This document shows positions 532-53,560 of a stretch of DNA of 64,000 nt, in pieces (the stretch's first letter is position 1; every line of letters begins with the position of its first letter). Position numbers and translations under genes: made by a program. The notes beneath the pieces were generated by a model. That model had not been told where the DNA came from. It was given only the letters and a program-made list of their open reading frames with translations, and did no database searches. The stretch comes from Psammoneis japonica (Eukaryota), in NCBI GenBank assembly GCA_008632985.1, contig QPGO01000006.1, positions 555,138-619,137 of the forward strand, written 5' to 3'.

Positions 532-956
532 TGCAGCATGCCTCGCTGCTGGACAACACGGCGAGACCGTGTACAAGCCTCTTGTGCATGGCAACGCAGC
601 ATTGTTAACACGCACCTGGGAAGCACGACCACAGGAGGGCATGGCTCTAGGTCCCAGGCAATTCCAGAAGGATGCTGAGAGAGCATCCGTGTGAAGCACA
701 CCAGCCCGTCGTCTGGCCCACGATGGTGGCGTGATTCCACATGATGACATCACTCGTGCATGGCGCGTGATGGCTTGATTCGCACGATCCACAACGTGAA
801 CGCACGATCAATTTAATGCGATCCAAATGCGAACGAATGGGGATTTGGCAAGATTCCCTGTTCGCACGATCCCATTTTCTCCACTCTAAACTGGCTCACA
901 ATTTTCACAACAACAAAGTCGCAACACATCTTCTTTTTCAGCGCCTGGTGCATGCA
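532..956 (+). repeat. 5' LTR (425 bp)
   Basis: Aligns without gaps to 3256-3680; begins TG and ends CA. Confidence 0.95.
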
Positions 957-1026
957 TGGGGCACAGTGAGACATCACTCCCGCATGTTGTGCGAGGTGAC
1001 GAAATCTACAGAAATGAAACTACGAA

Positions 1027-3300
1027 ATGTTGGCAGGACCGACAAATCTTAAAACGACCATGAAGAAGCAGATTGAGCCGCCGATTCCGTTCGCACGGCC
1101 GGAGAAGAAAGAGCTGCAGCAGGGCGAGTGCCAGACGTTCAAGCTGCGTAACAACCCTGCTGATCCGGATGGTCCAACGCATGAGATGGGCATTCCGCAC
1201 CTTTCTGCGGCTACATGCGAGACACTCCCAATCTTTCTACGCAACGTGGATCGCGTGCACGAAGGACAAAACATCACGACCGGGCCAGCGAAATTTGCCC
1301 TCATGCGTGACCTGCCACAGGGCGATGCTCTGACGTCATTCAATGATGCCGCTGACAAGCAGGCATCCCAAACCAACGCTGCGCACGCAGCATGCGTCGC
1401 GAAGCTAAAGGAAAGCATCTTCCCACATGGGGCGGTGCCATTGCAGAAGCGTTGTCTGAGGCGCTTCATGCGCAAGCCCGCAGAGGTTTCTGCTCGTGAC
1501 TGCGTCGCGAGGGCTGTTGAAATTAATGGCTGCATCTCTCAGTTTCCACCCGTGACAGAGGATGGAGAAACACCGGCACCATCACCTGATGACGAACATC
1601 CTGATTTTAACAAACCCTTTGAGACACATGCCGATGCCTCTAAATGTCAATTGGGAGCAGTTGCATCCCAGGACAACAAACCTGTCGCCTTTTACAGCAG
1701 AAAGCTCAACAGTGCGCAATTAAATTGTGCAACAACGGAGAGAGAATTGCTCGCCATTGTGGAGATGTTGAAAGAATTTCGAACGATTCTCCTTGGTCAT
1801 CGTGTGATCACACATGCTGATCATAAAAATCTTACGTACAAAGTGCTCAACACCGAGCGCGTTATGCGCTGGCGGTTGGCATGCGAAGAATGCGGTCCCG
1901 AATTGCGCCATGTTGAGGGCACCCACAACCCAGTCGCTGACGCTCTTGGTCGCCTTCGACCAGCACCCAGCTTGCCTTCTGAGGCTAATCCGGATGTAAA
2001 AGACACTCCATCGAGTCATCCTTTGCATGAAGCTTTTAATGCAGATGCGCAAGATGAGCCATCTCTGCCTGTTGGCTTCAAGCGCATTCAAAAAGCACAA
2101 CAAAAGGACAAGCGCCTGCTCTCAAGAGCCAAGGACTCGTCCGACTGCTCCATTCGCGCGTGTCGTGGGGGAGGGTCATCACGACAGTTAATCTGTCATA
2201 AGGACAAAATCGTCGCACCACAGTCATTGCAGGTTCCGCTAACTGAATGGTGCCACAAGACACTGTGTCATCCAGGTGAGACACGCACGGAAATGTCCAT
2301 TGCCCAGCACTTCTGTTGGCCTGGCATGAGGTCTACGGTGCATTCTACGTGCATCAAGTGCGATCGATGCCAGAAGACAAAACGCCGAACGCAGCATCAT
2401 GGGAAGCCACCAGAAAAGGTCGCAGAGACAATTCCATGGGAGACTCTGTGCATGGATGTGATGGGGCCACATAAAATTCAAAGATGCGGAAAGGACACCT
2501 TGCAATTGTGGGCAGTCACAATGATTGACCCAGCAACCGGGTGGTTCGAGATCAAAGAAGTGTCTGCGAAACGTGCAGACATCGCAGCAAACGTCGTAGA
2601 ACAAACGTGGCCATGCAGACATCCGTGGCCAACCCAGGTGGTTTATGACCGTGGGACAGAATTTATGGCAGAATTTAGCCAGATGATTAAAAATGACTGT
2701 GGGATTTTGAAGAAACCCACAAGTGAACGGAATCCACAGGCGAACGCCACAGTGGAACATGTGTGCCAGACACTTGGTGACATGGTGCGTTCCTTTTCAG
2801 CACAGGACATGGAACTGGACAAAGATGACCCATGGAGTGGCATCCTCTCCGCAGCAGCCTTCGCTGTTAGAGCTGCGGTGCATGCGACCACGCGTGCAAG
2901 TCCCATGCAATTGGTCCTCGGACGCGATGCGGTTTTGTCCATTGCCCATCGTGCCAAGTGGAAGTGCACAGAAACCAGAAAGCAGAAGCTTGTCCACTTG
3001 AACAACAAGCGTGAAAATCAGAAACGCAAGGAGCATCAACATGCCGCAGGGCAATTGGCACTTGTCAAACAGGAACAATCCTCTAAATGCAGTTCTGACA
3101 GCTGTGCAGGACCCGCCAGAGTTGTCCGTGTGTGTGACAACGGCACGTTGCGTGTCCAGAATGGAGCGCTGACAGACGCACACAATCTACGGCAGATTGC
3201 ACCCTGTCACCAGCAAGACATTCTGTCACTTGGCGGCCCTGATCATGGGGGAGTGTGCAGCATGCCTCGCCACTGGACAACACGGCGAGACCGTGCATGA
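1027..3300 (+). pseudogene. Gypsy gag fragment fused in frame to RNase H and integrase; protease and RT missing; hypermutated
   Basis: RNase H motifs HADAS..QLGAV, AFYSRKL, ERELLAIV, DHKNL, VADAL; integrase H-H-C-C zinc finger and catalytic core (PWETLCMD, YDRGTEF, NPQANATVE). Confidence 0.9.
3247..3255 (+). other. Polypurine tract of the Gypsy element
   Basis: gggggagtg immediately 5' of the 3' LTR. Confidence 0.75.
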
Positions 3301-3680
3301 GCCTCTTGCACGTGGCAACGTGGCATTGTCAACACGCACCTGGGAAGCACGACCACAGGAGGGCGTGGCTCTAGGTCTTAGGCAATTCCAGAAGGATGCT
3401 GAGAGAGCATCCGTGTGAAGCACACTAGCCCGTCGTCTGGCCCACGATGGTGGCGTGATTCCACACGATGACATCACTCGTGCATGGCGCGTGATGGCTT
3501 GATTCGCACGATCCATAATGCGAACGCACGATCGATTTAATGCGATCCAAATGCGAACGAATAGGGATTTGGCAAGATTCCCTATTCGTACGATCCCATT
3601 TTCTCTACTCTAAACTAGCTCATAATTTTCACAACGACAAAGTCGTAACACATCTTCTTTTTCAGCGCCTAGCACATACA
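3256..3680 (+). repeat. 3' LTR (425 bp)
   Basis: Direct repeat of 532-956 with about 32 transition mismatches. Confidence 0.95.
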
Positions 3681-5330
3681 CAGGGCAATGGTGCTGTGTG
3701 CAGCACGCTGGAGGTAGATCAAAGCCCTGACATTGTGCACCAAGGCAGGCATTTTTTCTTGTCAAGCTTTCTGAAAGCTGTGTGTGAGTTCACAATGGCA
3801 CCCCCAACCCAAGTGAAAACAACGTCATTGCAAACAACATGTGTGCAACTGCAAAGTGTGCACAGCAGCACACACACCCCCTTGCTTCTCAACCATCTGC
3901 TCCTGTGAGTCTGCAAGCACTGCTCTCTTCATCTTTGCACAGTGCACACCCAAGAAAAGAAAGTTTGCAAGTTGACAGCTGGGCCTCACTCAACATGGGC
4001 AATGAGCCCCACCAAACTCATCAAAAACCTGTTGCAACCCTTGCTTTTGCTGAGCATGGCTTGCCAAGAGCACTGGACATGCAATCTGGTGATGCAATTG
4101 CTTGCTGGCACAAGTTTTTCACCACAAAAAAAAATGCACAAGGGACAGTTGCCCTGGGTTGGCAAGAAGTGACAAAGCCCAAAGTGGTTGCCAAGGCAAA
4201 TTTCGCTTTAAAAAAAGGTGACAGCTGCTGCTCCACATTGTTTTGGCAGCTTTGCTGTGGCTCTGGTTTGTTTGGCATGGGGGTTCTTGTGAGCAGAGTG
4301 GTTGTTTCTTTTGCATTTTCTGATTTGGCAGTGCACTTGGTGACCATCAGTTGGGCTGGTTGTTGTGTTGACAAAAAATGTGCTGGCCAGCTGTGCCATG
4401 ACCCAGGCTGTCATTTTGCACATTGCTTGCTGCTCCTGCTCATGGAAAGCAGCTCAGCAACACAGAAAAGTCATCCCTGAGACAGAGCTTTTGTTGTCAA
4501 CTTGAACTCAGGCATGCTCATGTCGACTGAGCAGGTGCTGCGCTTCTTGGAAACAGCTCATCACAAAGGCTTGTCTCTTTGAGTGATGGGCACAACAGAC
4601 TGCCACAACACTTGGCTTGTTCTCACCTTTTCCAGAGCCTTTTTGCCATCTGGGGACCATGAGATTGGCTGTTGGTAACCTCTCACTTGCCAAAGTGGAG
4701 CAAAGCAGAGAGCTTGTTTTGTTCTCAGCCATGTGAGCATGATGGCGACAAAGCTCTGAGCAAACAGAGCTTGGCACATGGCATCAGCGCACATTTCAGC
4801 GCAGTCCAAAAACACGGGGCAAGCTCAGGTCAGAGGGATGGCGCCCAACCCTGCTTTCTCCTTTTCTTCATGAGCGAGCACCTCTCTCCCCGCAAGAGCC
4901 AATGTGCCCAGCTGGGAGCATCTTCATCATCTCTTTGGCTCAAAGCCTCAAACCATTTGTGCCTGCATCGGATTTATGCACATTGTGGGAAGACAATGAG
5001 GAGCATTCTGGAGAGCTGCCTCCTGAGTTTTTCCAAGTTTGGGTGGAGCTGTGGTGACGAGGAGCTTTGGTTTTTGGGCGTCAATCAAAACAATGGCACC
5101 GTGCCTCACAGATGTTTGCAGATGATGTGAACACAAGAAGAAGCACAAGAAGTGCAATCCACACCTTGCAGTGAAGAGAAAGATGGCTTGCCACCACCAG
5201 CAGATCAGCTCTCTTCTCTCTCTCTCTCTACCAGCAGCAGAGTAGAGAGCAACTGCCAGTGGCACCTGGTGGCTCGAACCGCATGCAAACAAAAAAAAGT
5301 GTCACTGTTGCCTCATTCTGTAGGGTTCTT
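3681..5330. repeat. Unidentified degenerate repeat relic
   Basis: Near absence of TA and CG; abrupt return to normal composition at about 5330. Confidence 0.6.
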
Positions 5331-5589
5331 TCGTTAAATGAAGGTCATCATTACATCAAAATTACTTAAGGAGCTGTGACAACGAAGAATACTTCGTTTT
5401 CCTATTGACATTTCATCGTCGTTGCAGTTGCGAATCGGTGTCAAAACAAGGTGTCACGCCTTTGATGGCAGGTTTGAGGAAGGAGCAGAAATGCGAAGAT
5501 CTGATGAAGATCATCCTACAGTACCAATGTACCCATCAATCGTCTCACAAACACAATTGCAACGCAACATAATCTGACACTTTCAAAAA

Positions 5590-6102
5590 ATGAATCAACT
5601 TCTTCTGTTTCCGTCGTTTCTTCTTCTTGTCGTTTCCGCGCAAGCTGCCTTCATCACTCGGCACGCGATTGTCCCGTTCCACAAGAGCGCCACCACAAGA
5701 CGTCACGTTGCATCGGTGGACTGGATCCAAGAATCTGGCGTAACAGATCAACAGGTTGAAGCCACCCCTGCTCCTTGGGTGAAAAAATCAAGCATGTATC
5801 AAGCAGTCGAGTGCGCCGAGGATGAATGCGACCTGAACGAAGTGACGTATCATTTATCTTCCCTCATGCAACTCGACGACGAATGTCTCTTTTATGATGC
5901 ATTCGAGAGCGAACCGACCGCGGAATGCTCAAATACACAAGATAGGCATTTAGTGCAACGAATTCTGGAACTCAAGAGTGAGCTTCACTCACTTCAAAAC
6001 GATTTGAAGGGAAACAAGTCTGTCAATTCAATCAAGAAGGGATACAACGAAGAGTTGCAGAATCATTGGTACAATGATTATCTGAACTTTTACCACATGT
6101 AA
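5590..6102 (+). CDS. Hypothetical 170-aa protein, probably plastid-targeted or secreted
   Basis: Hydrophobic signal peptide followed by an AQA-AF (ASAFAP-like) motif; clean ORF with normal composition. Confidence 0.7.
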   Translation: MNQLLLFPSFLLLVVSAQAAFITRHAIVPFHKSATTRRHVASVDWIQESGVTDQQVEATPAPWVKKSSMYQAVECAEDECDLNEVTYHLSSLMQLDDECLFYDAFESEPTAECSNTQDRHLVQRILELKSELHSLQNDLKGNKSVNSIKKGYNEELQNHWYNDYLNFYHM

Positions 6103-11130: not shown

Positions 11131-12205
11131 ATGAGAGGGGAACAACGACAAGTCGTTGAGGATGAGGCGCCGAAGAAAGCGTCACGATCCAGATTGATGT
11201 TGGAAATCTTTAGTCACCGTATGCTCAATCATGGCTGGAATTGTCATGGGAAAAAATGCTTTCGCTGGAAAAGTAAAATGGCCTGAGAAGTTCCCATGGG
11301 AGAACATAAAGAATCATAATAAAGATTCTTCAGATCACGACCAACTAATTGCAGGCACAGACAGCAAGCAACCGGAAACAAAAGTAGGCGATGACAATTC
11401 TAGAAAGGGTGAAGAAGAATGGGAGAACTTTACGTTCTGGCAACTCTACGACTACTTCCAATGTGAGTTTTGGGAAGACGAACACGAGGTGGAGTCTCAA
11501 ATTCCCACTCAGGAGACCTATCAGTTATTACGAGAGACGTTTTACAATGTTGTTGGACCTGAAAACTCAACGATTGGTCCGCCTTTGGATGGCTCGAATG
11601 GGTTCAAGTACCCCTATCTCGTCAAACAAAGCCCTAATAAAGGCCGAGGAATCTTTGCCGCAACAGACATTCCCAAAGGAGCGTTGGTTTGGTCCAATGA
11701 TAGAGCTGCCGTCTTTCCAGATGCGTCGTATTACAGGAAGTTCTTGCTATCGTTGCCACCAAATATTGCCTGTGATTGTATGCAATGGACTTATATATAC
11801 GATCTATACGGTTTGGGTAAGGACAAGAAGAAAATCATGATTGATCTCGATGAAGGTGCCATGTGCAACGACGGCGAAGAAACCGACGACGGCAGTGACA
11901 TTTCCAATCTAGGTTGGGATAGAGAGCGTGCCAAAAAAGTAAACTCGGGAAACGGAATGCACTTTTTTGCTCTGCGGGATATCAAAGCCGGAGAAGAGTT
12001 CCTATGTGTTTACACGGAGTTTTCTGCGGAAGGCGAAAACGACTGGGCAAATCACGGTCTAGACTGGGAAAGAAAACCAGAAGAAGACTCCTCATTACGA
12101 GATCCGGAAGACGAAGATGATGACTTCGATTATGACGTCGATGATGAATTTATGGATGATGGTGAGGATCAACATGACCACTCGGTAGCTGCTGAAGGGC
12201 GTTGA
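11131..12205 (+). CDS. SET-domain protein with N-terminal hydrophobic segment and acidic tail; apparent 1-bp frameshift near 11210
   Basis: KQSPNKGRGIFAATDIPKG, MCND and FFALRDIKAGEEFLCVY SET motifs. Confidence 0.85.
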
Positions 12206-12424
12206 ACACATTCAATCAAATCAGAAGCAGAGTTCGAAGAGAGCCACAATAGGCCATGTCGTTGTCGAATTTGCGTGAAACTGGAATGCTACGAATAAAC
12301 ATCGGTATGATAGAACCTATTCCTTGAGAGAATAAGACGATGCGTGGTCGGTAATTCTACTTAGTATTGTAGCCATCAGTTGGCTGAGCTTTGACCCAAG
12401 ATGATATCATTGTGGATTCCAAAC

Positions 12425-13777
12425 TCAATTCAGGAGAGCCCCAATTGAGCCCGCCGTCAATTTACATTCCTGCTTTTTATTCAAATGAAGACCAGGATCA
12501 ATGTCTGTATCATACCCATCAGGAACAGCAAACGGGGTTGTCCTTGTCATTTCTTGAACCGATGCATCCAACGCGAACACGGTTTCGCGGTCTTGATCGA
12601 TATCAACCATTTCTCTGTTTTCATAAACGTTTCCGTCGTGCTTCCAGTGTCTACTGTACGTTGCAAAAAGAACTGTTCGCAAGTGCGGACTCACGTTACT
12701 TCCGCCCCGATGCCAAATCTGATTGTCCCAAAAGATTGCATCATTCATATTGAGCAGGGGTGACCTCATCATGTTTTCGGGGCATCCATCAGATTCGGCA
12801 AACTTGTAGTACAACGAGTTCCTGTCCGTCAAAGCAGGGTCCTTCACAGGGGGAAACAAGTGCATACCGCCCAAGTAGGACGATCCTACACACATTTCAG
12901 TCGGACCCATGTCTCTCGTCACATTCCCCAAGGGCGTAAACATGAGGATCTGGGTTGGCGGCAAATCGTGTCCGGCAACCCCGTTCAACGTACGAAATGC
13001 TTCTTCTTCTCCGAAAAGGTATTCATCGTCATGATGCCATTCTTGATATCCAGTCCCTGGGTCTGCCGAGACAACGCCTAATCCGTCGATAATCATGTGT
13101 GGTCCCAGGATAAAGTTGTCGTCGTCGGCAAGAAGTTCCAAAACGTTGTCATCCAATAGAAAGTCGGGATCCGCCAAATGTCGAGGAAGAAGAATCTCCC
13201 ATCGACCCGTTTGCCGTTCCTCCATAAATCCACCTCCATACGATGGATTCGTTGTGTGGCCGGTATGATTGACTTGTCCTGTGTGGAGGCCCACTAGAAA
13301 ATCAGAAACTCGGTCCTTGTACTCCTCCATGAAATCAGGATCAAACAAATTACGAACTACTAGCATTCGGCATTTTGCCAGAGTCTTCCGAGCATCTTGA
13401 ACACTGTAGTTTGGGTCAGTCAAATCATATTCCCATTCCATGCACTCGGGGTCTTCGACGACGTTTAGAAAATCACGAATGTGCCGATCCGCAAACAAGA
13501 GCTCACCGTCCTTGTCGACGTAGCCTTTGTCCATCATCCAGTCGATATAATCCTTGTCTCGGGAATTGTCATACATTTTTTCTCTCTCAACTGCGTCTAG
13601 AATATCATTCAACTCATCGGAAGAAAACAAATCTTGAAACAAAAAGAGCGCTTCTTTTTCTGACTTAGTGTTCAAAAGAATGTTGACGGCCGCGTTCATT
13701 TTCGCTGCTCTTGTTTCTGCTGTTACTTTGGTAGTAAGCACAGCGATTGCAAAGCTGGAAATCAGCGCGACCTTCAT
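12425..13777 (-). CDS. Secreted PhyH-like 2OG-Fe(II) dioxygenase
   Basis: Signal peptide MKVALISSFAIAVL; QEWHHD (HxD), GPTE, WHRGGSN...R motifs. Confidence 0.85.
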   Translation of the reverse strand: MKVALISSFAIAVLTTKVTAETRAAKMNAAVNILLNTKSEKEALFLFQDLFSSDELNDILDAVEREKMYDNSRDKDYIDWMMDKGYVDKDGELLFADRHIRDFLNVVEDPECMEWEYDLTDPNYSVQDARKTLAKCRMLVVRNLFDPDFMEEYKDRVSDFLVGLHTGQVNHTGHTTNPSYGGGFMEERQTGRWEILLPRHLADPDFLLDDNVLELLADDDNFILGPHMIIDGLGVVSADPGTGYQEWHHDDEYLFGEEEAFRTLNGVAGHDLPPTQILMFTPLGNVTRDMGPTEMCVGSSYLGGMHLFPPVKDPALTDRNSLYYKFAESDGCPENMMRSPLLNMNDAIFWDNQIWHRGGSNVSPHLRTVLFATYSRHWKHDGNVYENREMVDIDQDRETVFALDASVQEMTRTTPFAVPDGYDTDIDPGLHLNKKQECKLTAGSIGALLN

Positions 13778-14599
13778 GGTTGATCCTTTTGTTTTGTATG
13801 ACTCGCTTTTATTGTGGATTATGTGAGGTGTGAGCGTTGAGCTGTCGAGGTGCACGAGCGTTGGAAAGAGAGATGCCTTCGCATTCAAAGATCTTGTATT
13901 AAAACTCTACGTACTCGAATAAAATTTGAAATTTTGAAATTGGCCGGAGAAAATTTGTATGATAGTAGTCTGTCTTTTCAACAAGAGAAGATGCGTTTTC
14001 GTTCCTACCCATTTCGTCCAACAATCTTGTCTGCCTCAAAAATCTCTGAAGCTGCGGGAAAGTCAGGTTATGAGCCAAAACTAGCGCTCTGATGCTGTCG
14101 TGAAACAAGACTGTGTCGTGCGCTGGGTACACCATCCACGACCCCATGTTGGCGGAAACAGTCTGCGTGCGGTTCACGTGAAAGACGCGATTTTTTCAAG
14201 AGAACAAGACGATTTCGGCCCTCTAGTTCAAGTTTAAGCCTAGGACCAGATTTAATTCTTGACAGGGCACTGCCACCACAATTGAGAGCCATTGAGTAGC
14301 CAGTTTGCATGATGGCAGTGACACAGAAATCTGATGGAAAGAAAACGCAAAAATGAGTGCGGTGCGGTGCAGCATTTTTGTCCGCGTTTGGAATCCCTGT
14401 CGCAGGCTCCAGCAGCTTACAACAGATGTGTCATGCTACAGCATCTAAATGCACATCATGACTGATGAAAAGAAACAGTTTGCCATCCACACTGCAAACA
14501 GAGCCAACACAGATTGCAGCAGTGTGCTGCTGCGATTCAATCCCTGCGAAATTGCGACCCCGACTGAACCTTGTCCGGCTTCGGCAATGGAACGTCTTT

Positions 14600-15654: not shown

Positions 15655-15970
15655 CGTGGAGTGTCGTTTTCTCCGCAAAACTGGGCCCGCCAAGATGGAT
15701 GCAACATCAATGATTCTTGTGCAGTCTCGAATGTGGTTTTTTTTTGTGAGCCGTTAAAAGTCATGCATTGATGCAGTGCGGTTGTGCGACGACACAGGCG
15801 AACGCTTTCGAACTGCTTCGCACAGTGCCGTGATGTACGACGCTCAACAGCTGTGATTTGAATTAGAGTTCTTAATCCATTGAGGTTGTGTGATAAAATA
15901 CAATGCATTGGCTTGCACACACATGAAATGTAATTTTTGCATCTGTGGATGTGCAATTTTTCAGAATCTG

Positions 15971-16510: not shown

Positions 16511-16773
16511 GGCGTTGATGTCCAATGATCACATTCAGTTTTAAAGCCATCATTGTCAACGTCACCATAAAAGCTTGCATGTGATTTTATCGTGTGTCTC
16601 TGCGTCACCTGCACAATGAAAACGTGGCATGGTGCACGCAGGCAGCCCAAACGAAGGCTCTCGATGGCTTTCGAAGAACGAAGCCGAGGCTCCACGCTCA
16701 CTCAGGAGCCAAGACGCAGACGCATCCACCCGCACTTCTGAGCTTGATCATCGTTGTTTGCTTGCTCCTGTCA

Positions 16774-29430: not shown

Positions 29431-29457
29431 CCATGACGATGCACCGACGACTTAACA

Positions 29458-37915: not shown

Positions 37916-38280
37916 AGGCAAAGCACCTTCTCATTGCTTTGCATCGCAATCGCGAGATAGTTCGAGTCGTGCCTCCGGTTCCACATTAGAATGTAAGAAT
38001 GAATACGGTGAGCATCGTTGGTGACGATTGTGGTCTTTTGTCCCGTCTCGCTGAAAGCGTCCACTAAGAGTAGTATGATTGAGCATGGAAGTGCCGCGAA
38101 AGATAAGTACGGTGGGTTGCTCAGGACTTGAAAAGCAGTGAAATAGTAGGTCAAGAACAATCTTAGATCAATAATACATGTTACACAACATTTGGGTGCA
38201 TACTGACAAGATGATTTAACATCCAGAGCATCGTGCAAACATCTTCGTGTAGCTAGCAAGGCTTTAGCAGCACCCTCTCT

Positions 38281-39890: not shown

Positions 39891-40831
39891 CCCGAACCGC
39901 CTTGAGAAAGAAAGAATTAACAAAAGGGAAAAGTATAAGTAACGGGTAACGGCAGAAGCAGGAGCTAGAACAACCGGATTCAACAGAGGAATCTCAATCG
40001 AGAGTATGAAGTCTTTGTCAACCGAGTCATAGGGAATACTAACAAAGAAGAAGGTCATCCGCCTTTGGTGCTTACCATGACAGTTCTCTTTTCGTGCCGG
40101 CAATGTGACGGCCAACGTGGGAACACGACGAAGAAATCCGATAAAGGGCAAGCTGCACGCTCGGTCGCTCGTCATGGCACGATATTCTAGGTTGAGGCAC
40201 ATCAACGGAGAGTGCCATGCTCTGGATGGGTACCCTATTCATTGATAAGGTTGGATGGTCGTCACGATGTTGCTTTATCAGCTCCATCACGCTTGCACAC
40301 AAGCTTCTCTTCTTGTTGTGTTGGAAAAGAGAAAATTGCGATCCCCGATCCCACGAGTCGCTAAGTGCGGAAAACAATTAGTGTTGTCCTTTCTACAAGT
40401 TTTATGTACTGGAAGGTTACGAAAATTTTTAAACGTTTCACGGGATCGTGATATGACCGTCTCTCATAAATCTCTTCCATCAGCTGTTTATCATTATTTA
40501 TGACGAAATGACTGTGATTGACATTTCCATATAGTTCGTGAGATGAAACCAATGACCAAGTCGAATTAACCGAATGTTTGAATATTAAATATACTAATTT
40601 TGGAAATGAATAATTTCGAACGATTAAATTTGCAGCGTACCATCGGTACAGCTCTATACTGATCTAAAACACTGATACTGAAGAAGGTATCATCATAAGG
40701 CGATTAAAGTCGTTATAGACTTGAAATATTAGTAACGGAAATACTATGATCTATTGACTTTAACGTTTTCCATATGACATTGTTTACCCGTTTGAAATGT
40801 CATACGGTATGGAACATGTCCGTTCCACGTC

Positions 40832-41560
40832 TTGCCTGAGGAGGAGTCTGCGAGAACACGAATCATCTTTCTGCTTTCTGCTCTCACCACTGCCAATCCA
40901 AAGAAATCCCATGGCATTGCACTCCTCAAACACCTTGGTCGGCACCTGCTAAAGACATGCAACAAGGGCTGCTGTGTTCAGATGCCACCTGACTGCACAA
41001 AGAGTTTTGAGTGCTGTGTGGATGCTGATTTCTCTGTGGCAATTGTGACAAAGCACCCGCAGCTCAGGGGATCCCAAGCGACACGGCAAAGTTTCACAGC
41101 GGCTTTGCATTCTCAAGCATGGAAGAGCCCCACCATCCACTGGTCATCCAACTTATAGACTCAGTTTGCTCTCAGCAGCAGTGAGAGTGAATGCTTGGCC
41201 ATGCCAGCTCTGCTGCCAGGCAGCTCATGTTCTTCTTGAGGCACCCGCGCATCTGTGTTTGGACAAGGTCAACAAAACATTTTGCCCAGTGACAGCCACA
41301 CCAATGTCACTCTGCAAGCTGTTTGAGGGCAGCTTGGCAGCACTCAAAATCACCAAGGTTCTTAAGATGAGGCCCAGAATGCATCACATCAACAGCGCAT
41401 CTGCCGCCACCACTTCCCTGCTCAAAAATCACTGCCCATGGATGCCTCCTGACTGAGGCTGTCGGGGCTGAACTTCAACAGGCTGACTTCTTGACCAAGA
41501 TGCTCAACATGTCAACATTTGTGTGCCATCATCTGTCTCTTCAAGGATGGCAATTGTTTG
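40832..41560 (+). mobile_element. Ty1/Copia RT C-terminus and RNase H relic
   Basis: KHLGRHL, FECCVDADFS, FALSSSESEC, CKLFE, KMRPRMHHIN, QQADFLTK. Confidence 0.8.
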
Positions 41561-42474
41561 AGTGTGACATTGTGGATCATGCACTCATGCAGCACCAGCC
41601 TGGTGCCTCAAGCTGCGAGAGACCAATGATGGATGACTGCCACAACAACCGCCATCAACAAATGAACCAGTCACAGATCAAACAACAACAGATTGCTCTC
41701 ATTGATCCTGAAGGTTCAAATCAAAAATGAAGCATGTCTTCTTCTTGCTCTTCTCTCGTGCAAATGAGAACTTCTTGTTTTGGGCAAGTCTTTCACTCAT
41801 GTTTGTCTGTGTGGGCTCCGGCACACATGCCAGCCAGTCACTTCTTGTTTTTCTTCTCATTTGTTGTTGGTTGTCAAGCAGCCCAGTTTTAAGTCTCACA
41901 ATTTAAAAATTGGCAAATTCAAACCCTGCGTGATTGTCAATCTTTGCTGTTTTTTGGTCTCTGTGGTGCAAAATGCCGTTGACCCCCGCGCACTTTGCAG
42001 CAGCTCACAATCATTCATTCATTGTTGTCATCTTGTGCTGATCAGTTCATTCATGGAGAGGGGCTCACCAATGTGTTGATGCCACCCACTTGCACCACTT
42101 GACTGGAAGCAATTCTCTGTTGTCATGCAGCACTGAGCATCCAGGTCATGCTTCTGCTTCATTTTTTTTACTTTGGTTGGAGTTCTCTCTCTCTCCTCTC
42201 TCCTTCTCTCTCTCCAATGGGCACTGTTGGTGAAGTTCTCTCTCACTCTTGTCATTTTCATTGGTTCCATGTGGTGCTCCTTGTCTCTCGGCAGTGCCTG
42301 CACAACAGCAGCCATCATGTGAATTTTCTTGTGGCTGCAAGAAGAGTTGCGGTGTGTGTCCACACATTTGCACCCTGACAAAAATGAGTGCAATTTGCTT
42401 CTGGACTTGTGCTCTGGAAAACTCAGCTGGCAGGTGGCTTTCCCCTGCCCTGCATGAGGACCAACAGCTTGATT

Positions 42475-43167
42475 TCATGATGCTTCGCGGCCCATTGTTG
42501 CACTCACTGTGGACATCATGCAATGGTGTTGTGCAAAAGCTGCTTGCAATTTGTCCGGGAGAGATGGATCATCCTCAAGCCACTCAAAATCGCAAGGAGG
42601 TAGACCGGGATCATGCTTGGACTTCTTGTGCATCAGTCCCCAATGTTTGGTGCACCACAAATGCTTGGCCATGTGCTTGAGTGGATCACAACAACGAAGC
42701 TCAGCCGGGGCCTTGGAAAACTTGGACAAGGTGACAACAGGACAACCAACATCCAAATGACAACAGGAGCAGGCAAAGACCAACTCACCCAGAGCAGAAT
42801 GGCAAGAGAAGCCTTGGGACTCAGAGAGAGCATCATGCTCAGGAGCACCCTCTTCAGGGCCTTCAGCAGTGTGCAGATCAGGAATGCAATCAACCGGAAT
42901 GGGTGCAGCCTTGAAATCAGACTCAGATTCATTCGCAGCGAGAGCATCCCAACCATGGGTCTTGAAGACACGATCAAGGCAGCTGGCAACATTGACAGCA
43001 ATTGAATCGTCATTTTGGATGACATCAATGCCATTGAATTCAGCAACCAAGCCCAAATGCTTGAACGGAGGAGTGTCCTCATTCTCCATCTGGAGAGCCT
43101 TGCCAATGTGGTCGCAGATCTCTTTTGCAATCTTTTTGGAGGGACAAGCAAGAGCAAAAGAAGTCAC
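42475..43167 (-). mobile_element. Ty1/Copia (CoDi-like) reverse transcriptase relic
   Basis: FALACP, PFKHLG, FNGIDVIQ, GFSCHSALGELVFAC, DVGCPVVTLSKF, AKHL..TKHWG. Confidence 0.85.
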
Positions 43168-43980
43168 GCCACATCATCAGCCCTTGAGATTGTTGTTGTG
43201 TTCCGGTGTTGTGATTGGTTGTCCTTGTTGTTCAACTCAATTCAACTCAATTGTCGTGTGTGTTTGCCAAGGCAAAAACAACTCTGCTTTGCTGGGGCGC
43301 AGTGCCAACTGCTGCACTGAAAAAGGGACACCAGGTGGTGAGATGAGACAGCAGCGCCATTTCTCTTTTCTGTTTGCACTGCTGCCCAACTTTCAGACAT
43401 CCAACATGACCTCAGTTTCAACCCTTTTTGTTTGTCACATGAGATTCATTTGTTCCCTGCTGGCTGACAGCATTGCAAAACAACTCTTTTGGTTTTTGCA
43501 CAGGCTGAACACTTGCTTCACTCATTGAAAAAATTTGCACTTTTCTGGGACAAGAAGGGTTTGTTTTCATTGCATCCTGTGTTTTCATTCTTGCAGCTCA
43601 TCTGAGTTCATTTCCTCCAATTCAGGCAGCATGCACAGCTTGCCACAAGCTGTGTGAGCCTGTCATGTCTTTGCACACCATCATCTTCAAGAAGTTTGCT
43701 GTTGGGGGTGCATTGACACACAAGTCAACTTGGCAGAGCAGCTCTGTCTTTGGCTCATCTGCCACCTTGGCCTTTGACGCTGGTGCTTTCTTTGTGGCAC
43801 TGATGCAGCCCAAGAAGCCCAACGACCATTGGCTCTCAGTGCCAGCCACAAGCTTTGTTTGCTGACTGCCCTCCATGCTCCCCCTTCTTTTTGCTTGTTG
43901 CCTGTCATTTTCCACCCAAATTTGCTTCTCTTGCAATCTTAAATTTGCTCTCTCCCACCATTTCCTTGCTTGACAACAAT

Positions 43981-44040
43981 GCTCATCTCAAGCATGACTG
44001 CAGTGACCGTGCTCATCTCAAGCATGACTGCAATGACTGT
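43981..44040. repeat. 30-bp tandem duplication
   Basis: gctcatctcaagcatgactgca.tgac.gt twice. Confidence 0.85.
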
Positions 44041-44176
44041 GGCACCAATGTTTTGTCAGGAGCCCACCTGGTCAAAGTCTTTTCATGGATCTCATCACAC
44101 TGCCAGCAGTGCTTGGTTTTGTCAAACATCATGGTTGCAAAGCTTTTCTTGTCCTTCTTTGTGAGAATTCTTTCTC

Positions 44177-44566
44177 GACGCGTTCCAGCCCTAGGTGGGA
44201 CTCCGTGTGACATTGGGCCCGTAGAATTCTACGTGCGAGCTCCGTAGTACGAGAATTTAATTAATGGATATATTTATCTTCAACATCAAATAAACGGCCA
44301 AGTTTGTGGTACAATTATGCCTCTTACCACTCGACGTTTTTGCAACTTCGCCTGCCCTACGCGATTCTTAAGACATTGTAGAATCGCGCTGTAACAAAAA
44401 ATGTCAAAAGTTGTTACACGGATCACTCAATAAGTGTACCGTAAAATGACACAAAATATCAAAAAAATCACGTAGAAATCTACGTGCGCGACATACGACG
44501 AGACTCAAAAAACCATCGATGTCACAGTTCAGTAGTACGAGGTCCCACCTAGACCTGGAACGCGTC
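44177..44566. mobile_element. Putative 390-bp MITE with 30-bp imperfect TIRs and TCTC flanking duplication
   Basis: gacgcgttccagccctaggtgggactccgt (44177-44206) is inverted relative to acgaggtcccacctagacctggaacgcgtc (44537-44566); tctc on both sides. Confidence 0.6.
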
Positions 44567-47500
44567 TCTCAGCCAGCAACACAAAAGCTGCCAGCTTTAG
44601 AAAAAAGATGCCAGCCCACCCTCCACATTGTGGTGCAAAGCAAACATGAGAACAGCACAGCAGGCAGCAAACAGCATGCTGGTTGCATGTTTTGCAGTTG
44701 CAGTCTGAGCAAAGTTGCTGGTGAGTGGTGAGCGGTGAGCACACAATTTGAGCTCACAAAACAACAAAGCCAGTGTGGAGCCATGCAGGTGTCAGCATCA
44801 CGTTGAGTCTGTCCACACCAGCTGGCAGTTGAAACACAACAACAATCTGCTTGTTTCTGCATGATTTAGAAACACCATGCTGCAACCCAGCCCCTGGCAA
44901 CAGAGAGTGATTGGGGTTGATGATTGTTCACCTCAGCACTTTAGATGTGTGATGTGTGGTGATGACTGCAGCCAATTTGAGGCTGCAGCTCTGTGAAGTT
45001 GTTTTTTTTCCAGTGGGGTTGCACTTCTTGCTTTTGCCATGCAAGCCTGCATTTGATGAAGTGCAACGCACAACAGTGTCAAGACAGGCTGGCACATTTT
45101 TTCTGATTGTCTGACTCCTGAGGAAACATTTGCTCAGCTGTCAAAATTTTCAGCTCATGATGGCCCAGCTGATGCATCGATGAACAGAGTGGTTCTGCAA
45201 ACCACTTTTGCATTCCCCATCATTGCAACTCACCAAGCTGACACACTTTCACATTGGTGTGCTGGAAGTGTGGGTCAGCCTGCACCAGCGCCACCAGTCA
45301 AAAGAGCAGCAGCACTGAAAATTGGGTCTGCTTCATTCTTCATTTTGAAACAAGTTTTGTTGCTCATCAAAACTGTGCCGTGGTGTGAGTGTTTCTGTGG
45401 CAACCCCATTTTTTCCCTGTTTTGATTCTCCTCCTGCCTCCATTTTGTCTGTTCACTCTGCTCTCTCATGGGCTTGTTTCTGCTCTTCTTTTGCTTGCAC
45501 TGTTCTCACAATGACTTGGTGCTTTGTGTGAGCAAAGAGCAGCCTGTGACGAAAAAAAAAAAACAGCTTTGTTCCACAGCCCTGTGTCATCTGTTTCAAA
45601 GAGGCTCTGTTGAGTTGCATTTTTTCAGCACAGAGTGGGGTTTAGAGTGCTTTAAAAAGGGCAGCTCAATCACACATTTCTTCACCATGTTCCAAGGTTG
45701 AGTGAGTGGACTTTTGCAGATCAAATTTTCTGGGGCTTTCTGCAAAACAAGAGAGGTGCAGTGCAGGCACAAAAAGCCATCTCAGATGCCAACAAACTTT
45801 GCCATGTGACCCCGTGGGCTGTGGTGTGGAAGGAGTCAAGACCCATGAAGCTGGTGCATCTTCCTTCAGGAAGTTGTGCTGCTTGACTCTCACCTTTTGG
45901 GTGCTGAGAACCTCTTTTTGGATGGCATGTCCCATCAAGACAAAAGTGCATCACAGCTGCTCCTGGGTCAAGCAAGTGTGGTGCCAGTGTTGAGAATTTG
46001 CAGTTGATGCCAGTGAAAAATCACAGAAGTTTGCCAAGACAGAAAAGAAAGAGTGAGAGCAGCCCCAAGAAGAGGAGCCCAAAGCCACAAACAAAGAAAA
46101 ATGGGTCCTCCTCTGACAAACATGGGCAGAATGCCAGTGCTTTGCTGCCCTCTAGAAGAGATGTGCCTCCTGCTTCTTCCTCAGCAGAGCCAGAGTGAAT
46201 GATGGCAAATGGCACATGTTGCTGGATCTGCAGCTGGCCAAAACTCATCTTCCCCAGTCTTGTCTGGCAGCAACGGACACATCATGTTGATCACAGTTTT
46301 GGCACTGACTGCAAGGGCTGCCTTGTGCTGGAGGACATGGAAGTGACCTTCAATGTGTGGGAAAAGTTTGAGAAAGGAAAAAAACTTTCAGCTGGAGTGC
46401 CGTTGAGAGTGTTGTTGTTCTTCATGCAACTGCATTCTCAGAGATCATGTGTGCTCACCTGTGCAAAGACCTGTGCACAGGACAATTCACTGACAACAAG
46501 TCTGCAAGGAACTGATCAATGGGGTCATGCAGGGAAATGTGCTTTGCCAACAGAGGCATCAGCCCCCAATTCTGTGTGTGCCCAGGGGCAGAGAAACTTG
46601 GTCATCTCATCAGTGATTTGTCATGGCATGTGCTTGGTGTGCTGCATTTGCAAGCAAGCTTGCTCTGCACACTGCACATCTCTGTTGGTGTTTTTGTTTC
46701 TGAGTGCATTTTGCAGGAACACCTGGGTTTTTGAGGCTGACAATGTCTCTGTGCAGCTTCAAAGCCCAGTGGGCATGTGATCATCACACTGCCAAGTTGT
46801 TGATAGAAGGGTCCATTGCAACTGCTGCCAACAAGGGCAGCCACACAATGGCAGGCTGCAGATGATGGCTGCTTTTGCACGTCCCAGCATTGCCCGCCCT
46901 TGCTGTGCCACAATCCATGACTGCATTGCTGGACAGGAGCAAGCCTGCCCTTGAAGCTGTCAACAATGGACAGCCTCTCCGGACAGCCCAGCTGGCCATG
47001 GATGCAATTGGAGTGAATGGACATGCACCCCAGAGTGATGCTGAGCAATGCAATGCACTCAGCTCAAATCCAGCTGCTCATCTCAAAGACAAAAACCAGC
47101 CAACATGCATTGAGAGGCAACCTCAGCAGCAGATTCATCTCCATCTGCAAGAAGATTCTTGATGGGCAACAATCTGAGTGCCCAGAGCTGTGACAAGGAA
47201 GGGGCTGAGTGCACTGACACACCCAGTCTTCTTTGACACTGTCCAGATGGTTGAGTGGAGTGGAGGAGTCATGCAAAGCTTGTGAGCTTTTTGTGGAGCA
47301 AAGCAGGGATGCAGACAATGAGCCAGTCAAGAAGTGGAACATTTCTAGGCTCAAGAGCAGGAGCGCAGACAATGTGAAAGCATGGTTTGACAAGAGAGTC
47401 ATGCAGACACAGCATCCATGATGTTTGGACAAGAGCGGCTGGTGCTCCACCCCACGCTTGTGTTGGTTGACAAGAGTGGGCATTGGGCTGGTGGTGGGTG

Positions 47501-47690
47501 CATCAATTTCATCTGGCATGGCGGTACAAAGCTGGTCAAAGAGGCAGACAAGTGGGGCACAACCCACATGACTTTTGGAAGGATCCAAGTTGATGGATTT
47601 TTGCGCTGCAAAATGGATTCAGGAGGACCAACGACATCATTGCAGTGATGGAGGCAGATCCACACATTTGCTGAAGCCCCACAGGTCTGG
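44567..47690. repeat. Unidentified degenerate repeat relic (TA- and CG-depleted)
   Basis: About 3 kb nearly devoid of TA and CG. Confidence 0.6.
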
Positions 47691-47826
47691 TGTACCTGTG
47701 GGTCGCCGGCCCTCCGTTGGTCAGCCGTGTTCTCCACGTCCCATGCCGCCGACGTGTTGAGAAGCTTCCGCAAGGGGTAACGTGGCTCCACATTAGATCG
47801 AGAGGCCATCTTTGCTAAAGTAGTGC

Positions 47827-47934
47827 CAGCTCATGACATGCTTGGAAACTCATTCCGATTGTATCAGATCTAACTCTCTCTTTTCTTAAGTAGCAGCAGC
47901 TCATGACATGCTTTGGAATCTCATTCCGATTGTA
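47827..47934. repeat. About 37-bp direct repeat, 70-bp period
   Basis: cagctcatgacatgctt..ctcattccgattgta at 47827 and 47897. Confidence 0.8.
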
Positions 47935-48032
47935 CGTCTCGACTGTAATCCATGAAAACTGTTCTAAAATTACATGAGTACGGTCTGATGGCGAAATGGG
48001 CCGTTAAAATACCATCAGTTCAACCACCAACA

Positions 48033-48907
48033 CTAATCCTCGTAATTACTCCAATCCATGGTTACCGATTGACAAATCTCAGCTCCACCTCGCGCAATAT
48101 CCGACTCTATACCTTGTCGTCTTCGATTGCTTCCGCTGCACTTCAAAAATCGGGCCCGCACAGTTTTTCATCACACTCCAAGCATCTGTTCAATTGCCGT
48201 CGTGCAAGGAATTCTTTGGTTCTCTTAACAAGTATACACTCTTGAGACAGGTAAAGATGCATTGTTGAATACTACACACCATGTCATCCAACCAACACTC
48301 TTGACAGTCGGGTGTAAAGCCAACCGACTCGGCCATGCAATCCGACGCGGTTTTCGATAAACATCAATGCCTCGCCACAAAAAGAGCGACACGAGGTAAC
48401 CCTTGGTAGAACACCGTGTAGCACCGTCCGTTAGAGTACGTGTCGTTCCGGCATAAATTCCCATGTCGTGCAAATTGCTGCAACGCCCGCATGCACCACA
48501 GTGAGCAATGTTGTAATTCGTTTTGGAACCGAGTCTCGATTCGGAAACGTGACGAAATTATTTGTCTCGGGAGAAGCCGCCGCACAAACACGCTTATCAT
48601 TTGTGTACAGTTCCAATGATTCCTTGGCTTCGTCAATCGCAGACTGCTCAAAATGTGATCCAATGAGGATAATTGGAATTCCCATGAAAAGGGGAAGCAG
48701 CAGAAACAATAGAAGAATTGTTGCGACACGTGCCGGCCTCTTTTGTTTACCAGCAATTTCTCTTTTTCAACTTCATCTTCAATCGATGAAAACGAGGTTG
48801 ACGCTGTGCCTGGCGTCTTATCCAATAAGTGAGGGCGGCGGCGACGGACCTCGCTGCGGCCATTCATCATGGCCGCGTTGAAGATTTGCTTCAATTTTTT
48901 GCTTCAT
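48033..48907 (-). CDS. Cys-rich type II membrane or secreted protein, broken by several 1-bp indels
   Basis: Across frames: HCGACGRCSNLHDMGIY, VGFTPDCQECWLDDMVCSIQQCIFTC, CLECDEKLCGPDF, CSGSNRRRQGIESDIAR. Confidence 0.7.
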
Positions 48908-50241: not shown

Positions 50242-50739
50242 GTGGATGGATGGAGTTGAGGGGGCGCCTGTACGAGGGCGAAGGGACTGGTGTAGTTTGA
50301 TTCAACAGCATGCCATTGTATAGAGCTTACGATAAAGCGCCGAGAAACAAAACGTTTAACCTCTACTCTAACAACTGTACCCAATCGTTGAAGGCCTCGA
50401 TTCTGGTCCTGATACAATTTGTTTCAAGTTATCCTCTCAGATATGTTCTTGTCCAGTCCAGTCAAATCCGAGCCATAAAAAAAGAGCAGTTTCTGTATTG
50501 TGTCCTTCCCGTGCGTATTTGACGTCGGATTTCAAACCAACCAATCACTTTCGTGATTCCCGAGACGTTGCCATTGTCCCATGATCTCCCAAAGACAAAA
50601 ATTGATCTTCATGCTACCCCTCTTGCAAGGCAGTGTGATAACGAAAACGCAAGCATGCCCATGCTATATCTTCCAATGATGATTTGTTGTGCCACTTGCG
50701 ACTTCTCTTCCTCTCGCTCAAAGTGAATGAACTGCATCT

Positions 50740-53560
50740 ATTTTTATTTTGGCCGTGTGTTGGAAGGAGCCCAACTTGGACCACATGTGAAAAAAGAATG
50801 TTTGGAAATTGAAAAAAAATCAGGGGTGTTTTGGTGAAGCCTTCATCTCATTTGCACAAGGGCTTAAAGTTTGCTTCTCATTGCTCTCTTCAAGGTTGCT
50901 GCAGTCATCATCATGCATCCTCAGTGTCCTCATCAAGCTCACACAAATGTTCTCTCAGAGGGTCCACATCAGGCAATGATGAGTGTTTTGCTCAATTGAA
51001 TGTGAAAAGAATGTGGCTTGTCAGAGGGAGAAGAGAAGTTTTGCACTGAATGTGGGAGCTCAAACAATGGCCAAATCTTCATGTGCTTGGCTGAAATCCT
51101 GAGTGGGCAGATGATGTGTTGCATGTCTTAAGTGACATCATAAAAGTGCTTGGCCTGCTGGGCAGTGCTGGAATGTTGGCTTCTTCCCAAATTGGGCTTC
51201 AGCATTCTTGCAAAACTTGTGAGAAAAGACAAGATTCAATGACAAGATTGTGAGTCAAACTGGGTGTTGTCATCACACTTGCAGTCATCATGCACAACAA
51301 GAAAATCTGTGGCAGCATTGGCTCAATGCTCACACTCGGCAATGACTTCCTCACAACTGCAAATCTGTGCAGGTGAGCAAAGAGGCTGATGACCTTAGAG
51401 CAAAGTCTCTTGACCAAAAAAATTTCCATGCTGCCCATGCTTGTGAACCAAGAATGCACAAATGATCTGCACAAAATGTCTCTTGTCGAGCTTGCTGAAC
51501 TTGTCCTTTTGGGCAGCTCCAAATTGTGCCGCCAAATTTGATGCATTGGGGCCATCACAAATGCCACAGAGTTGACCACACTTGATGTGAGGCAAGATCT
51601 TCTTATTGTGCTGCAACTGGCTCTGGCAGAAATGCAAGCTGCAAGACCCCGTTGGGGTTTCAGCTTGCACTCTCACCACTGGCAAGGACAAGGGGGTGGT
51701 TGCACAATCCACCACTGCATCTTGGAGGTGGCACCAGCAGCAGCAAAGGAGGATGGGGCAGTGTGATGGTTGATGTGGATCATGTTGACATTGGGAAAGA
51801 CCTGTGGGTTGCATGATCCCTGGAGCCTTGAACAATGCACTGCCTTCTTCCTCGACACAAAACAGCAGCACCAAAATGGAAACTTGACAATCATTGACAG
51901 ATGCAGAAAACCTGTGACATCACTTGAGGCACAGCCCTTGATGGGTGGGAGACTGGCAGAGAGTCAAAGAAACTCAAGCAGGGTTTTTTTGGATGATGAG
52001 CTGAGCGGCACAGCAGGCTGTCCGATCACAACAATGCCTCAAGAAAATGATGCCCTGCCAGGGCCATCCACAGAAGAACTGTGTTGTGGTGTGTGAACAT
52101 GTCCAAGCTTGTTGACAATGAACAGAGCTCCATTGCAGCAGAAAAGTGCTGGCACATGAGCACACGCTTGTGTGGGCAAGCACGCTCCTCTTGCTGCAGC
52201 AGATCTGTGTCTCTGTTGCACGACATCATCTCACCAACTTGCTGATGCCATTGCTGATGGTGCTCAAATGTGCTCCTTGCAATTTTGAAGCTGATGCCCT
52301 CTTTGCTGTCCCCCTCCCAATTTTCCCACAACACTCAGCCAGCGAAAACCTTGGGGGCAGAGCAACTTTCCTTGCATGGCTGAGGGCTGAGCAAAGCAGC
52401 AGAAAAAGAGTCAAGGAGCACAGGAGTGAGGCCAGGTGCACCCTAAGAGGGTGTTCTCATTGGTGTGCAACATGCCAGGAAAGGCTTCAGGCTGCAGTCT
52501 ACAGCTGCCCAGAAGTGATGCTGTGGTGTGAGCAGAAGTGCGACATCTCAGTGGATCGCATCATTCCTGCTTAGATGCAGGGATCTCCATCAGGTCATGA
52601 GCAACGCTTGCACAGACATGCAAGCAAGGCTCCTCTGCCACTGCCGACAACACATTTTCCTCTCGTTTTGTCATCGACAACACCGGCAGAGAGTGTTTGC
52701 ATCGCAAACTTTGCCGCTCTGTCAACGACAACGACGTCCGCGCATTGGACGCTGATTCACGCCATTGCCATTTGTTTTTGCAGCTGCTTGCGTGGGCATC
52801 AGCACACCTTCTACGTGTGTCATGATCTCCTTGGGTCTGTGCCACAGAGATCCGATGCATGCTGCCCCCACGTGGTGTGACGACATCGATTTTTATTTTC
52901 ATTGTCGATCACCATGGCGCCTGCCAACAGCACCCGTTCGAAAACGGCATCCTCTTGGCAGGACACTCTGTCATCACTCAAGGCCACCACATCACCTGTG
53001 TCAGCCGATGACTCCCCAGTCTCTCCTCCTCCGGCAGAGACTGACCTTGCGTCCACTGGTGATGCAACGGCAGAGGACACTTCGGTGCCTCACAATGCGC
53101 CCCCACGGCAGAGGACGCAATTGAGGCTGAAGCCACACTGGCGGCGAACATCACTGCTCCGGAAGCTGATGCAAGTCCTGAACAGATGAACACCGCCAAA
53201 TCTGCATTGGAGCAGCCGACGCTGCCAGTGCTCCCAAGCTTGCCTCCATGCTTGCCGCCTGCCCCACCTCCTGAATGGCCTCACACACGCCTCCTGGCAC
53301 TCTCCCGCCACCTGAGGAACCTCCCGACCCTCCACACTCACCTCCGACATTGACACAGGCTCTCCTCAAGATGCGTGAGAGCAATCTCACATCAGCTGTT
53401 GCCCGCATCCATGAACATGAGCGGGCACTGGACGCATCTGCGGAAGAGGTTTCCAAGCCAAAGCGGGAGAGCCACGCGGACTCCGTTCGGTCACGAATGA
53501 TCATGCCTCGGCCATCACGGACCTCAAACATGCTCGTGACTTCGAGCTCCTACGTACCGA
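50740..53560. repeat. TA-depleted repeat domain: older CG-poor part to about 52500, younger CG-retaining part 52550-53560 (possibly LTR plus gag-like)
   Basis: Composition; Pro/Ser-rich broken ORFs at 52902-53577. Confidence 0.5.

Follow-up and report, generated by a model that had tools for sequence, protein, structure and literature searches.

Fungal repeat-induced point mutation (RIP) changes C to T at CpA, which makes TpA, and it requires duplicated sequence. Changes of the opposite kind have been described for the alga Bigelowiella natans in a preprint (bioRxiv 10.64898/2026.01.13.699255, April 2026). It reports that, of 231 de novo mutations that mutation-accumulation lines acquired in two integrated viral regions, 230 were A>G or T>C and every one of these fell on a TpA, and that the regional mutation rate was about 1000-fold above that of the rest of the genome. 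The same preprint describes 124 genomic clusters of TpA-poor windows rich in CpA plus TpG, finds low-TpA genes enriched for reverse transcriptase (RT) and DDE domains, and names an ADAT2-like candidate. Here, we analyze a 64,000-nucleotide stretch of the diatom Psammoneis japonica (contig QPGO01000006.1, positions 555,138 to 619,137; hereafter the window), in which several blocks of DNA, among them a Ty3/gypsy long terminal repeat (LTR) retrotransposon at 531–3687, are depleted of TpA. We conclude that in this diatom discrete inserted stretches very probably undergo a DNA-level change of TpA to TpG or CpA after integration, far faster than other changes and ending sharply at their borders, a judgment that covers this shown core and not the enzyme.

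The Bigelowiella natans case resembles ours in having almost only A>G and T>C changes at TpA, in their restriction to discrete regions, in a footprint of TpA loss with CpA plus TpG gain, and in that a single-copy target is possible. The two differ in host, Bigelowiella natans being a chlorarachniophyte (a rhizarian) and the present host a diatom (a stramenopile), and in proven target, which here is an LTR retrotransposon whose two LTRs carry evidence of action after integration. Depletion is also deeper here, with TA observed/expected (o/e) ratios of 0.04–0.11 against the 0.45 given for the giant-virus insert of Bigelowiella natans, and CpG decay accompanies the TA loss; the words 'CpG' and 'diatom' are absent from the main text of the preprint. 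Whereas the Bigelowiella natans process was seen live in mutation-accumulation lines, ours is a footprint in sequence alone. An earlier note on this DNA had held that no described system bears such a signature, but the preprint describes the same TpA>TpG/CpA hypermutation. The present case is a new lineage for a process described once, in 2026: it is real and its direction is right, and it is neither unprecedented nor repeat-counted. Our literature search, with subscription journals outside its reach, returned no report of a TpA>TpG/CpA signature in diatoms.

Like fungal RIP, the process is an irreversible transition hypermutation of inserted or mobile chromosomal DNA with sharp borders and a dinucleotide-specific footprint. 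Unlike RIP, it destroys TpA (depleted 10-fold) instead of creating it, and it does not require duplication: stretches near single-copy depth are saturated, and a 390-bp miniature inverted-repeat transposable element (MITE) present at about 2000 copies is spared. It also recalls the animal APOBEC and ADAR editing of retroelements, a deaminase-driven hypermutation of mobile elements as defence. However, the C>U signature of APOBEC is not seen here, and ADAR acts on RNA, is sense-strand-specific after reverse transcription and also edits AA, neither of which holds in the window.

Sharply bounded TpA-poor blocks

The TA o/e of the entire window is 0.45, and the deficit is concentrated in discrete blocks 1.1–3.7 kb long, whose borders we refined from the positions of single TA and CG dinucleotides. 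The blocks and the element nested in the first of them are as follows.

1–530 (feature 1–527): TA-poor block of older DNA, the left flank of the nested LTR element; TA o/e 0.054, CG o/e 0.14; it resumes at 3692 across the 4-bp target duplication
531–3687 (+): nested LTR element; TA o/e 0.22–0.61 and CG o/e 0.78–1.09 across its parts
3688–5330 (feature 3692–5330): TA-poor, CG-poor older DNA, the right flank of the nested element; TA o/e 0.067, CG o/e 0.18
14298–18030: TA-poor block with nearly normal CG; TA o/e 0.11, CG o/e 0.82; includes the open reading frame (ORF) 15208–15753 (-)
28151–29452: TA-poor, CG-poor block of unassigned origin; 3 TA in 1302 bp, TA o/e 0.043, CG o/e 0.41; no Pfam match
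33122–34199 (-): TA-poor stretch with normal CG within the open frame 32825–34198 (-); TA o/e 0.115, CG o/e 0.91; Tyr 0.4%
40810–44176: left part of a 6.5-kb TA-poor, CG-poor block; 9 TA in 3367 bp, TA o/e 0.040, CG o/e 0.24
44567–47692: right part of the same 6.5-kb block; 9 TA in 3126 bp, TA o/e 0.044, CG o/e 0.10
50746–53550: TA-poor block whose right part is a dispersed repeat family; TA o/e 0.061, CG o/e 0.39

In a pool of seven blocks that excludes the nested LTR element, we counted 72 TA in 16,432 bp (4.4 per kb), compared with 1717 in 40,906 bp of host DNA (42.0 per kb), and the Poisson P of the individual blocks against the host rate ranged from 6e-8 to 3e-48. TG and CA were raised to 1.4–1.9 times expectation within blocks, and per kilobase the pooled blocks held 211.6 CA+TG (host 146.8) and 23.2 CG (host 54.5). 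The balance of blocks minus host is -37.6 TA, -31.3 CG and +64.8 CA+TG per kb, such that the CA+TG gain nearly equals the summed TA+CG loss of 68.9. By contrast, AA stands at 77.2 per kb in blocks and 78.1 in host DNA, AA, TT and GG are all unchanged, and the GC content of the blocks is slightly above that of the host. Methylation in diatoms is reported to lie predominantly at CpG (PMC5124317), and 5-methylcytosine deamination at such sites accounts for the lost CG, and for some of the TG/CA gain, in five of the seven pooled blocks. It cannot remove TA, the loss of which exceeds that of CG and also occurs at near-normal CG.

The borders are sharp to tens of bases. At one left border TA occurs about every 10 bp until 40808 and the next lies only at 40950, while at one right border there is no TA between 53200 and 53551 and TA is dense beyond. 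The region from 40.8 to 47.7 kb is one block, interrupted by the MITE with its normal TA. We also noted that the right edge of the first block is less sharp than other borders, with a transition zone at 5331–5700 (TA o/e 0.34, CG o/e 1.22). Among the TA dinucleotides still present in blocks, TTAA, TTAG and CTAA are over-represented, at 0.22–0.44 of the host rate, and ATAT, GTAC, ATAC and GTAT stand at 0–0.05; effects of the -2 and +1 flanking bases are inseparable in these figures, given strand symmetry and only 14 polarized LTR events. Comparison of the window with itself, in ordinary and in purine/pyrimidine coding and in both orientations, returned no repeat that links the blocks apart from the LTR pair, and Rfam and tRNA scans of the window gave no match.

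These counts bear out what the earlier note had read from the letters, namely TA depletion with TG/CA gain in a set of domains and normal TA in host genes. Its coordinates agree with ours within tens of bases, apart from an edge it placed at 18250 that we place at 18030 and the stretch 33122–34199, which it had not listed. Its account of the composition was right about TA and overlooked the CpG decay present in most blocks. It had also called the domains derived from transposable elements (TEs), which is shown directly for 531–3687, while the other blocks gave no TE domain.

In-place divergence of a Ty3/gypsy element

The direction and timing of the changes can be read from the LTR element, the only directly demonstrated TE among the blocks, which is nested in older DNA still poorer in TA and CG. 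Its parts are as follows.

528–531 and 3688–3691: 4-bp target-site duplication ATGG flanking the element
~531–963 (+): 5' LTR, a 433-bp direct repeat of 3255–3687 with TG..CA ends; 5 TA, 27 CG
964–3254 (+): internal region with open frame 1018–3300; RNase H and integrase at ~1597–3216; TA o/e 0.26
3255–3687 (+): 3' LTR, preceded by a purine tract; 15 TA, 32 CG

Pfam matches in the internal region (RT_RNaseH, Integrase_H2C2 and rve) identify an integrase and an RNase H of Ty3/gypsy type. The protease and RT are missing, as a tblastn search with 30 gypsy pol homologues matched the window only at 1432–3216.

The two LTRs are 92.1% identical in plain letters and 100% identical in purine/pyrimidine coding over 433 bp. 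All 34 differing sites are transitions, and 33 of them are interchanges among TA, TG, CA and CG: nine TA/CA, five TA/TG, six TG/CA doubles, four CG/CA and three CG/TG. Outside any pyrimidine-purine step, a single position in 193 differs in the 436-bp LTR alignment. Since both LTRs of an element start out identical at integration, the changes between them must have occurred in the chromosome and not at the RNA or cDNA stage. We estimate the fraction of TA sites hit at 0.83 in the 5' LTR and 0.48 in the 3' LTR, and that of CG sites at 0.18 and 0.03, all rough values from small counts. By this rough estimate, TpA mutates roughly 10–20 times faster than CpG within the same DNA, and at least about half of the LTR TA sites were changed. 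Mutation has gone much further in the 5' LTR than in its 3' counterpart, with 5 and 15 TA and 27 and 32 CG remaining, respectively, and the process is thus uneven within one insert.

The pol frame reveals the polarity of the change. We compared it with 120 homologues at the 306 columns where at least 70% of them agree, and found that the element retains a conserved Tyr at only 2 of 14 columns, seven now encoding His and five Cys, compared with 237 of 292 columns retained for other conserved residues (Fisher P=3e-7). Among 67 pol substitutions, 30 fit a single TA step (16 TA>TG and 14 TA>CA) and three fit CG>TG/CA; the remainder comprise four other transitions, 12 transversions and 18 multi-step changes. 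The sense strand thus shows A>G and T>C nearly equally (16 vs 14). Across both pol and LTRs the changes are mainly A>G and T>C at TpA, the LTRs contributing 14 TA/TG or TA/CA differences and 6 TG/CA doubles among their 34, and CpG-type changes form a second component on top. Since every one of the 120 homologues keeps at least 10 of the 14 Tyr, TA poverty is not native to the pol family; the homologues average 3.87% Tyr, compared with 0.5% in the whole frame 1018–3300 of the window.

Related copies point the same way. Comparing 52818–53540 with related contigs, in 19 of the 40 variant rows listed, with 599 further rows beyond the listing, we observed that the majority has CG at eight places and TA at three where the window has TG or CA; two TG/CA doubles (four rows), one reverse case and three others make up the rest. 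A metagenome search with pol returned 80 loci, seven of which have a TA o/e of 0.15–0.39 and a TG/CA o/e of 1.4–1.6. Those seven keep 0–2 of 14–31 aligned Tyr, with 10–18 now Cys or His, while intact relatives keep Tyr; none of the seven has nucleotide similarity to the window. Within one such family, the less mutated L009 has TA where L006, L008 and L010 have TG or CA 33, 26 and 13 times, with 2, 3 and 2 reverse cases, whereas CpG-type differences and other transitions are symmetric. Another locus, L014, contains a 2.4-kb TA-free domain between flanks at TA o/e near 1. Three related gypsy pol loci (L002, L013 and L019) show the complementary state, a CG o/e of 0.08–0.14 at an ordinary TA o/e of 0.45–0.76, and are elements in hosts with CpG decay and without TpA hypermutation. 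Because CG alone is lost in these three loci and TA is lost at near-normal CG in 14298–18030 and 33122–34199, the TA and CG processes are separable.

Assembled contigs of accurate reads (run X1, depth 57–66, contigs up to 14 kb) match the window over 34000–41154, 41171–42631 and 44541–48352, the last being a 3815-nucleotide contig at depth 61, with 0, 1 and 6 differing letters over 7.2, 1.5 and 3.8 kb. The earlier note had named three findings that would count against it, a base-calling artefact, a family that is itself TA-poor and a lack of TA>TG/CA excess. The accurate-read contigs carry the same TA-poor bases, intact family members are not Tyr-poor, and 30 TA-type changes face 4 other A>G and T>C changes. 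Its central inference, a targeted A:T>G:C change at TpA, fits the replacement of Tyr by Cys and His and the TA that relatives keep where the window has TG or CA, and the polarity TA>CA/TG is, as it had said, opposite to that of fungal RIP.

Mechanism, targeting and rival explanations

In integrated DNA, TpA becomes TpG or CpA by A>G on either strand, symmetrically, and over it lies a slower CpG>TpG/CpA decay, as expected of CpG-methylated repeats. Older inserts have lost nearly all TA and CG, the younger nested LTR element has been converted in part and the MITE has not been touched. The TA and CG o/e ratios fall into such a series: 0.05–0.07 and 0.14–0.18 in the old flanks, 0.22–0.61 and 0.78–1.09 in the nested element, and 0.95 and 1.52 in the MITE. 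We infer that this process and the TpA hypermutation of Bigelowiella natans are of one kind. Confinement to inserted DNA is seen for the LTR element, with sharp borders; most of the other blocks are of unassigned origin.

For the base-changing step itself we can offer guesses. Quite possibly, a deaminase acting on DNA, such as an ADAT/TadA-like candidate, attacks A where it follows T (A>inosine>G); the target of the tRNA deaminase, A34, follows U33. Error-prone repair synthesis strikes us as a distant guess. One form of it, the Pol eta-like mutagenesis that the earlier note had proposed, predicts A>G at both TA and AA (WA>WG, W being A or T), and is unlikely, as TA falls from 42.0 to 4.4 per kb while AA is unchanged.

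Lying between these in plausibility, and in our view unlikely, is a thymine chemistry in which a TET/JBP-like oxygenase would make 5-hydroxymethyluracil or 5-formyluracil at TpA, and mispairing of the modified base with G would give T>C. TpA is palindromic, so that T>C on one strand is indistinguishable from A>G on the other, and the two products are near-equal (16 vs 14). 5-Formyluracil mispairs with G, and the 5-hydroxymethyluracil of dinoflagellates favors TpA. However, the window shows no evidence of such an enzyme or base, and the sole published proposal is an adenine deaminase.

It is very unlikely that no TpA-specific process exists and that the blocks instead came TA-poor from a donor or were shaped by GC-biased conversion together with CpG decay. 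Most blocks are without a known ancestor and their GC is slightly raised, as such an origin would allow. Yet the two LTRs have come to differ at TA sites since their insertion, few A>G and T>C changes fall outside TpA (4 vs 30) with AA, TT and GG unchanged, and intact relatives are not Tyr-poor, while TA loss in the metagenome family runs 33:2 with other transitions symmetric.

We give still less credence to editing before integration, by which an ADAR-like A>I change in retrotransposon RNA, or an editing of cDNA, would be fixed through reverse transcription. One target is indeed a retrotransposon, and ADAR usually favors U 5' of the edited A, as the discussion of the Bigelowiella natans preprint notes. 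Against this, 33 of the 34 LTR differences are of this type and are necessarily post-integration, sense T>C and A>G are about equally frequent (14 and 16) where editing of sense RNA predicts A>G only, AA is not depleted, and approximately single-copy stretches without a recognizable RT are also saturated.

Equally hard to credit is an artefact in which modified DNA is misread during base calling or polishing, so that TA appears as TG or CA in the assembly, even though the blocks probably are modified DNA and run X1 may be the assembly's own data. The X1 contigs agree with the window nearly letter for letter, independent metagenome contigs share the signature, and the Bigelowiella natans signature came from Illumina NovaSeq data. 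Nor would a systematic miscall explain the six sites at which one LTR reads TG and its partner CA. Biased T:G mismatch repair and UV photoproducts were dropped, as neither explains strict TpA specificity in sharp domains.

The content and copy number of the other blocks bear on how targets are chosen. ORF 15208–15753 (-) matches 1661 database clusters at E<=1e-3 (best 3e-29), whose names are uninformative, and all ten relatives tested are without a Pfam domain; it is a remnant of a large protein family, which fits a mobile-element protein and proves none. No homologue of ORF 32825–34198 was found among 8000 scored candidates, and it had no Atlas match. Pfam searches of 145 block ORFs of at least 70 aa yielded no TE domain and only three matches, all below the cut-off (UPF0506, DUF5795 and Innexin). 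Outside the LTR element, then, the weaker TE evidence consists of parts that are repeated in the source reads and of ORF 15208–15753.

We summed read depth over contigs at least 80% alike, with a single copy at about 57; old copies may have diverged beyond 80% and so escaped this count. Depth is 69–1466 over 40810–44176, reaching 334–1466 at 42004–43337, and 277–615 over 52009–53342. By contrast, 44672–47339 and 50675–52008 stand at one to two times single-copy depth, yet are saturated. The MITE, which lies in the 6.5-kb block, shows the opposite combination.

44177–44566: MITE, 390 bp, with 30-nucleotide terminal inverted repeats; TA o/e 0.95, CG o/e 1.52; inserted in a TA-poor block

Its summed depth is about 1.2e5, which we read as roughly 2000 copies, and it is the sole part of the window present in the tiny run X3. 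Saturation of approximately single-copy stretches alongside a spared high-copy MITE means that targeting is not a matter of copy number alone, and the earlier description of the hypermutation as repeat-restricted is not supported. We infer on the same grounds that targeting follows a silent or foreign chromatin state, a mark on the chromatin rather than a count of repeats.

Several points weigh against this reading of the window or narrow it. Our scope is one 64-kb window rather than the whole genome, and one block only is a proven TE; for most blocks the direction of change is read from composition. In ORF 15208–15753, none of nine substitutions at 55 conserved columns is TA-type and its single conserved Tyr is kept, a test that says little because those columns include only that one Tyr. 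The pol substitution classes prefer the TA-type reading when the ancestral codon is ambiguous, although Tyr>His and Tyr>Cys are unambiguous. The MITE may be spared simply through youth. The platform of X1, possibly the assembly's own sample, is not on record. Finally, the peptide patterns behind the metagenome search were derived from the mutated protein, a choice that favors mutated relatives and biases the share of seven in 80.

A process that mutates a single dinucleotide within selected chromosomal stretches is a new form of genome defence in eukaryotes, reported so far in one preprint on a single alga. Its footprint, now seen both in a diatom and in environmental contigs, suggests that it is widespread in algae of ecological dominance. 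The LTR pair demonstrates action on integrated DNA, and on retrotransposons, and gives a first rate relative to CpG decay. With the MITE spared and single-copy stretches hit, repeat counting is an improbable trigger. For base editing, a natural DNA editor making A>G specifically at TpA would be of interest. It is conceivable, though rather doubtful, that TpA hypermutation is a genome-defence pathway shared by algae of the stramenopile-alveolate-rhizarian (SAR) clade, possibly older, which would mark inserts whatever their copy number, erase TpA some 10–20 times faster than methyl-CpG decays, and perhaps use a heritable mark (a modified A or T) on the palindromic TpA, as 5-methylcytosine is used on CpG. 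If that were true, diatoms would be tractable hosts in which to find the enzyme.

Coding potential and neighboring genes

Since TAA and TAG stops are nearly absent from TA-free DNA, gene callers would over-predict genes in the TA-poor blocks. We observed long overlapping ORFs of this kind, for example three of at least 200 aa at 17065–17733. Such ORFs in stop-poor DNA are false. TE annotation and dating are also biased in genomes of this type.

The genes between blocks encode a SET-domain protein, a PhyH-like dioxygenase, a presenilin, an FG-GAP protein, a nucleotide-sugar transporter, an HMG-box protein and a cytidylyltransferase fragment. Named relatives of the presenilin are all from diatoms, the best aligning at 64% over 40% of the query and at 43% over 84%. 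None approaches full identity, so the host is a diatom, not Bigelowiella, and its own proteins are absent from the database. The NDK gene that had served as a host reference in the earlier note was not found in the 22 largest of the 28 frames of at least 200 aa or in 17 of the 33 host ORFs of 120–199 aa. The SET-domain and PhyH-like 2-oxoglutarate (2OG)-dioxygenase genes (11198–13906) lie directly left of the block at 14298, with no link to hypermutation shown.

Run X2, labeled 'DNA?', acts like an RNA run: it covers host genes and next to nothing in the TA-poor blocks, which we do not take as evidence of silence. At 38620–40075 (-) its contigs skip 90, 128 and 175 bases with CT..AC ends, that is, GT..AG introns of a minus-strand gene. 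Short local direct repeats, 77–89% identical, occur in host intergenic DNA at 37194–37913 and 47809–47934. Toward the right end of the window, 54158–63999 (+) holds five consecutive long open frames (314, 813, 834, 838 and more than 450 aa), none with a Pfam domain, which could belong to a single very large gene or form a tandem family.

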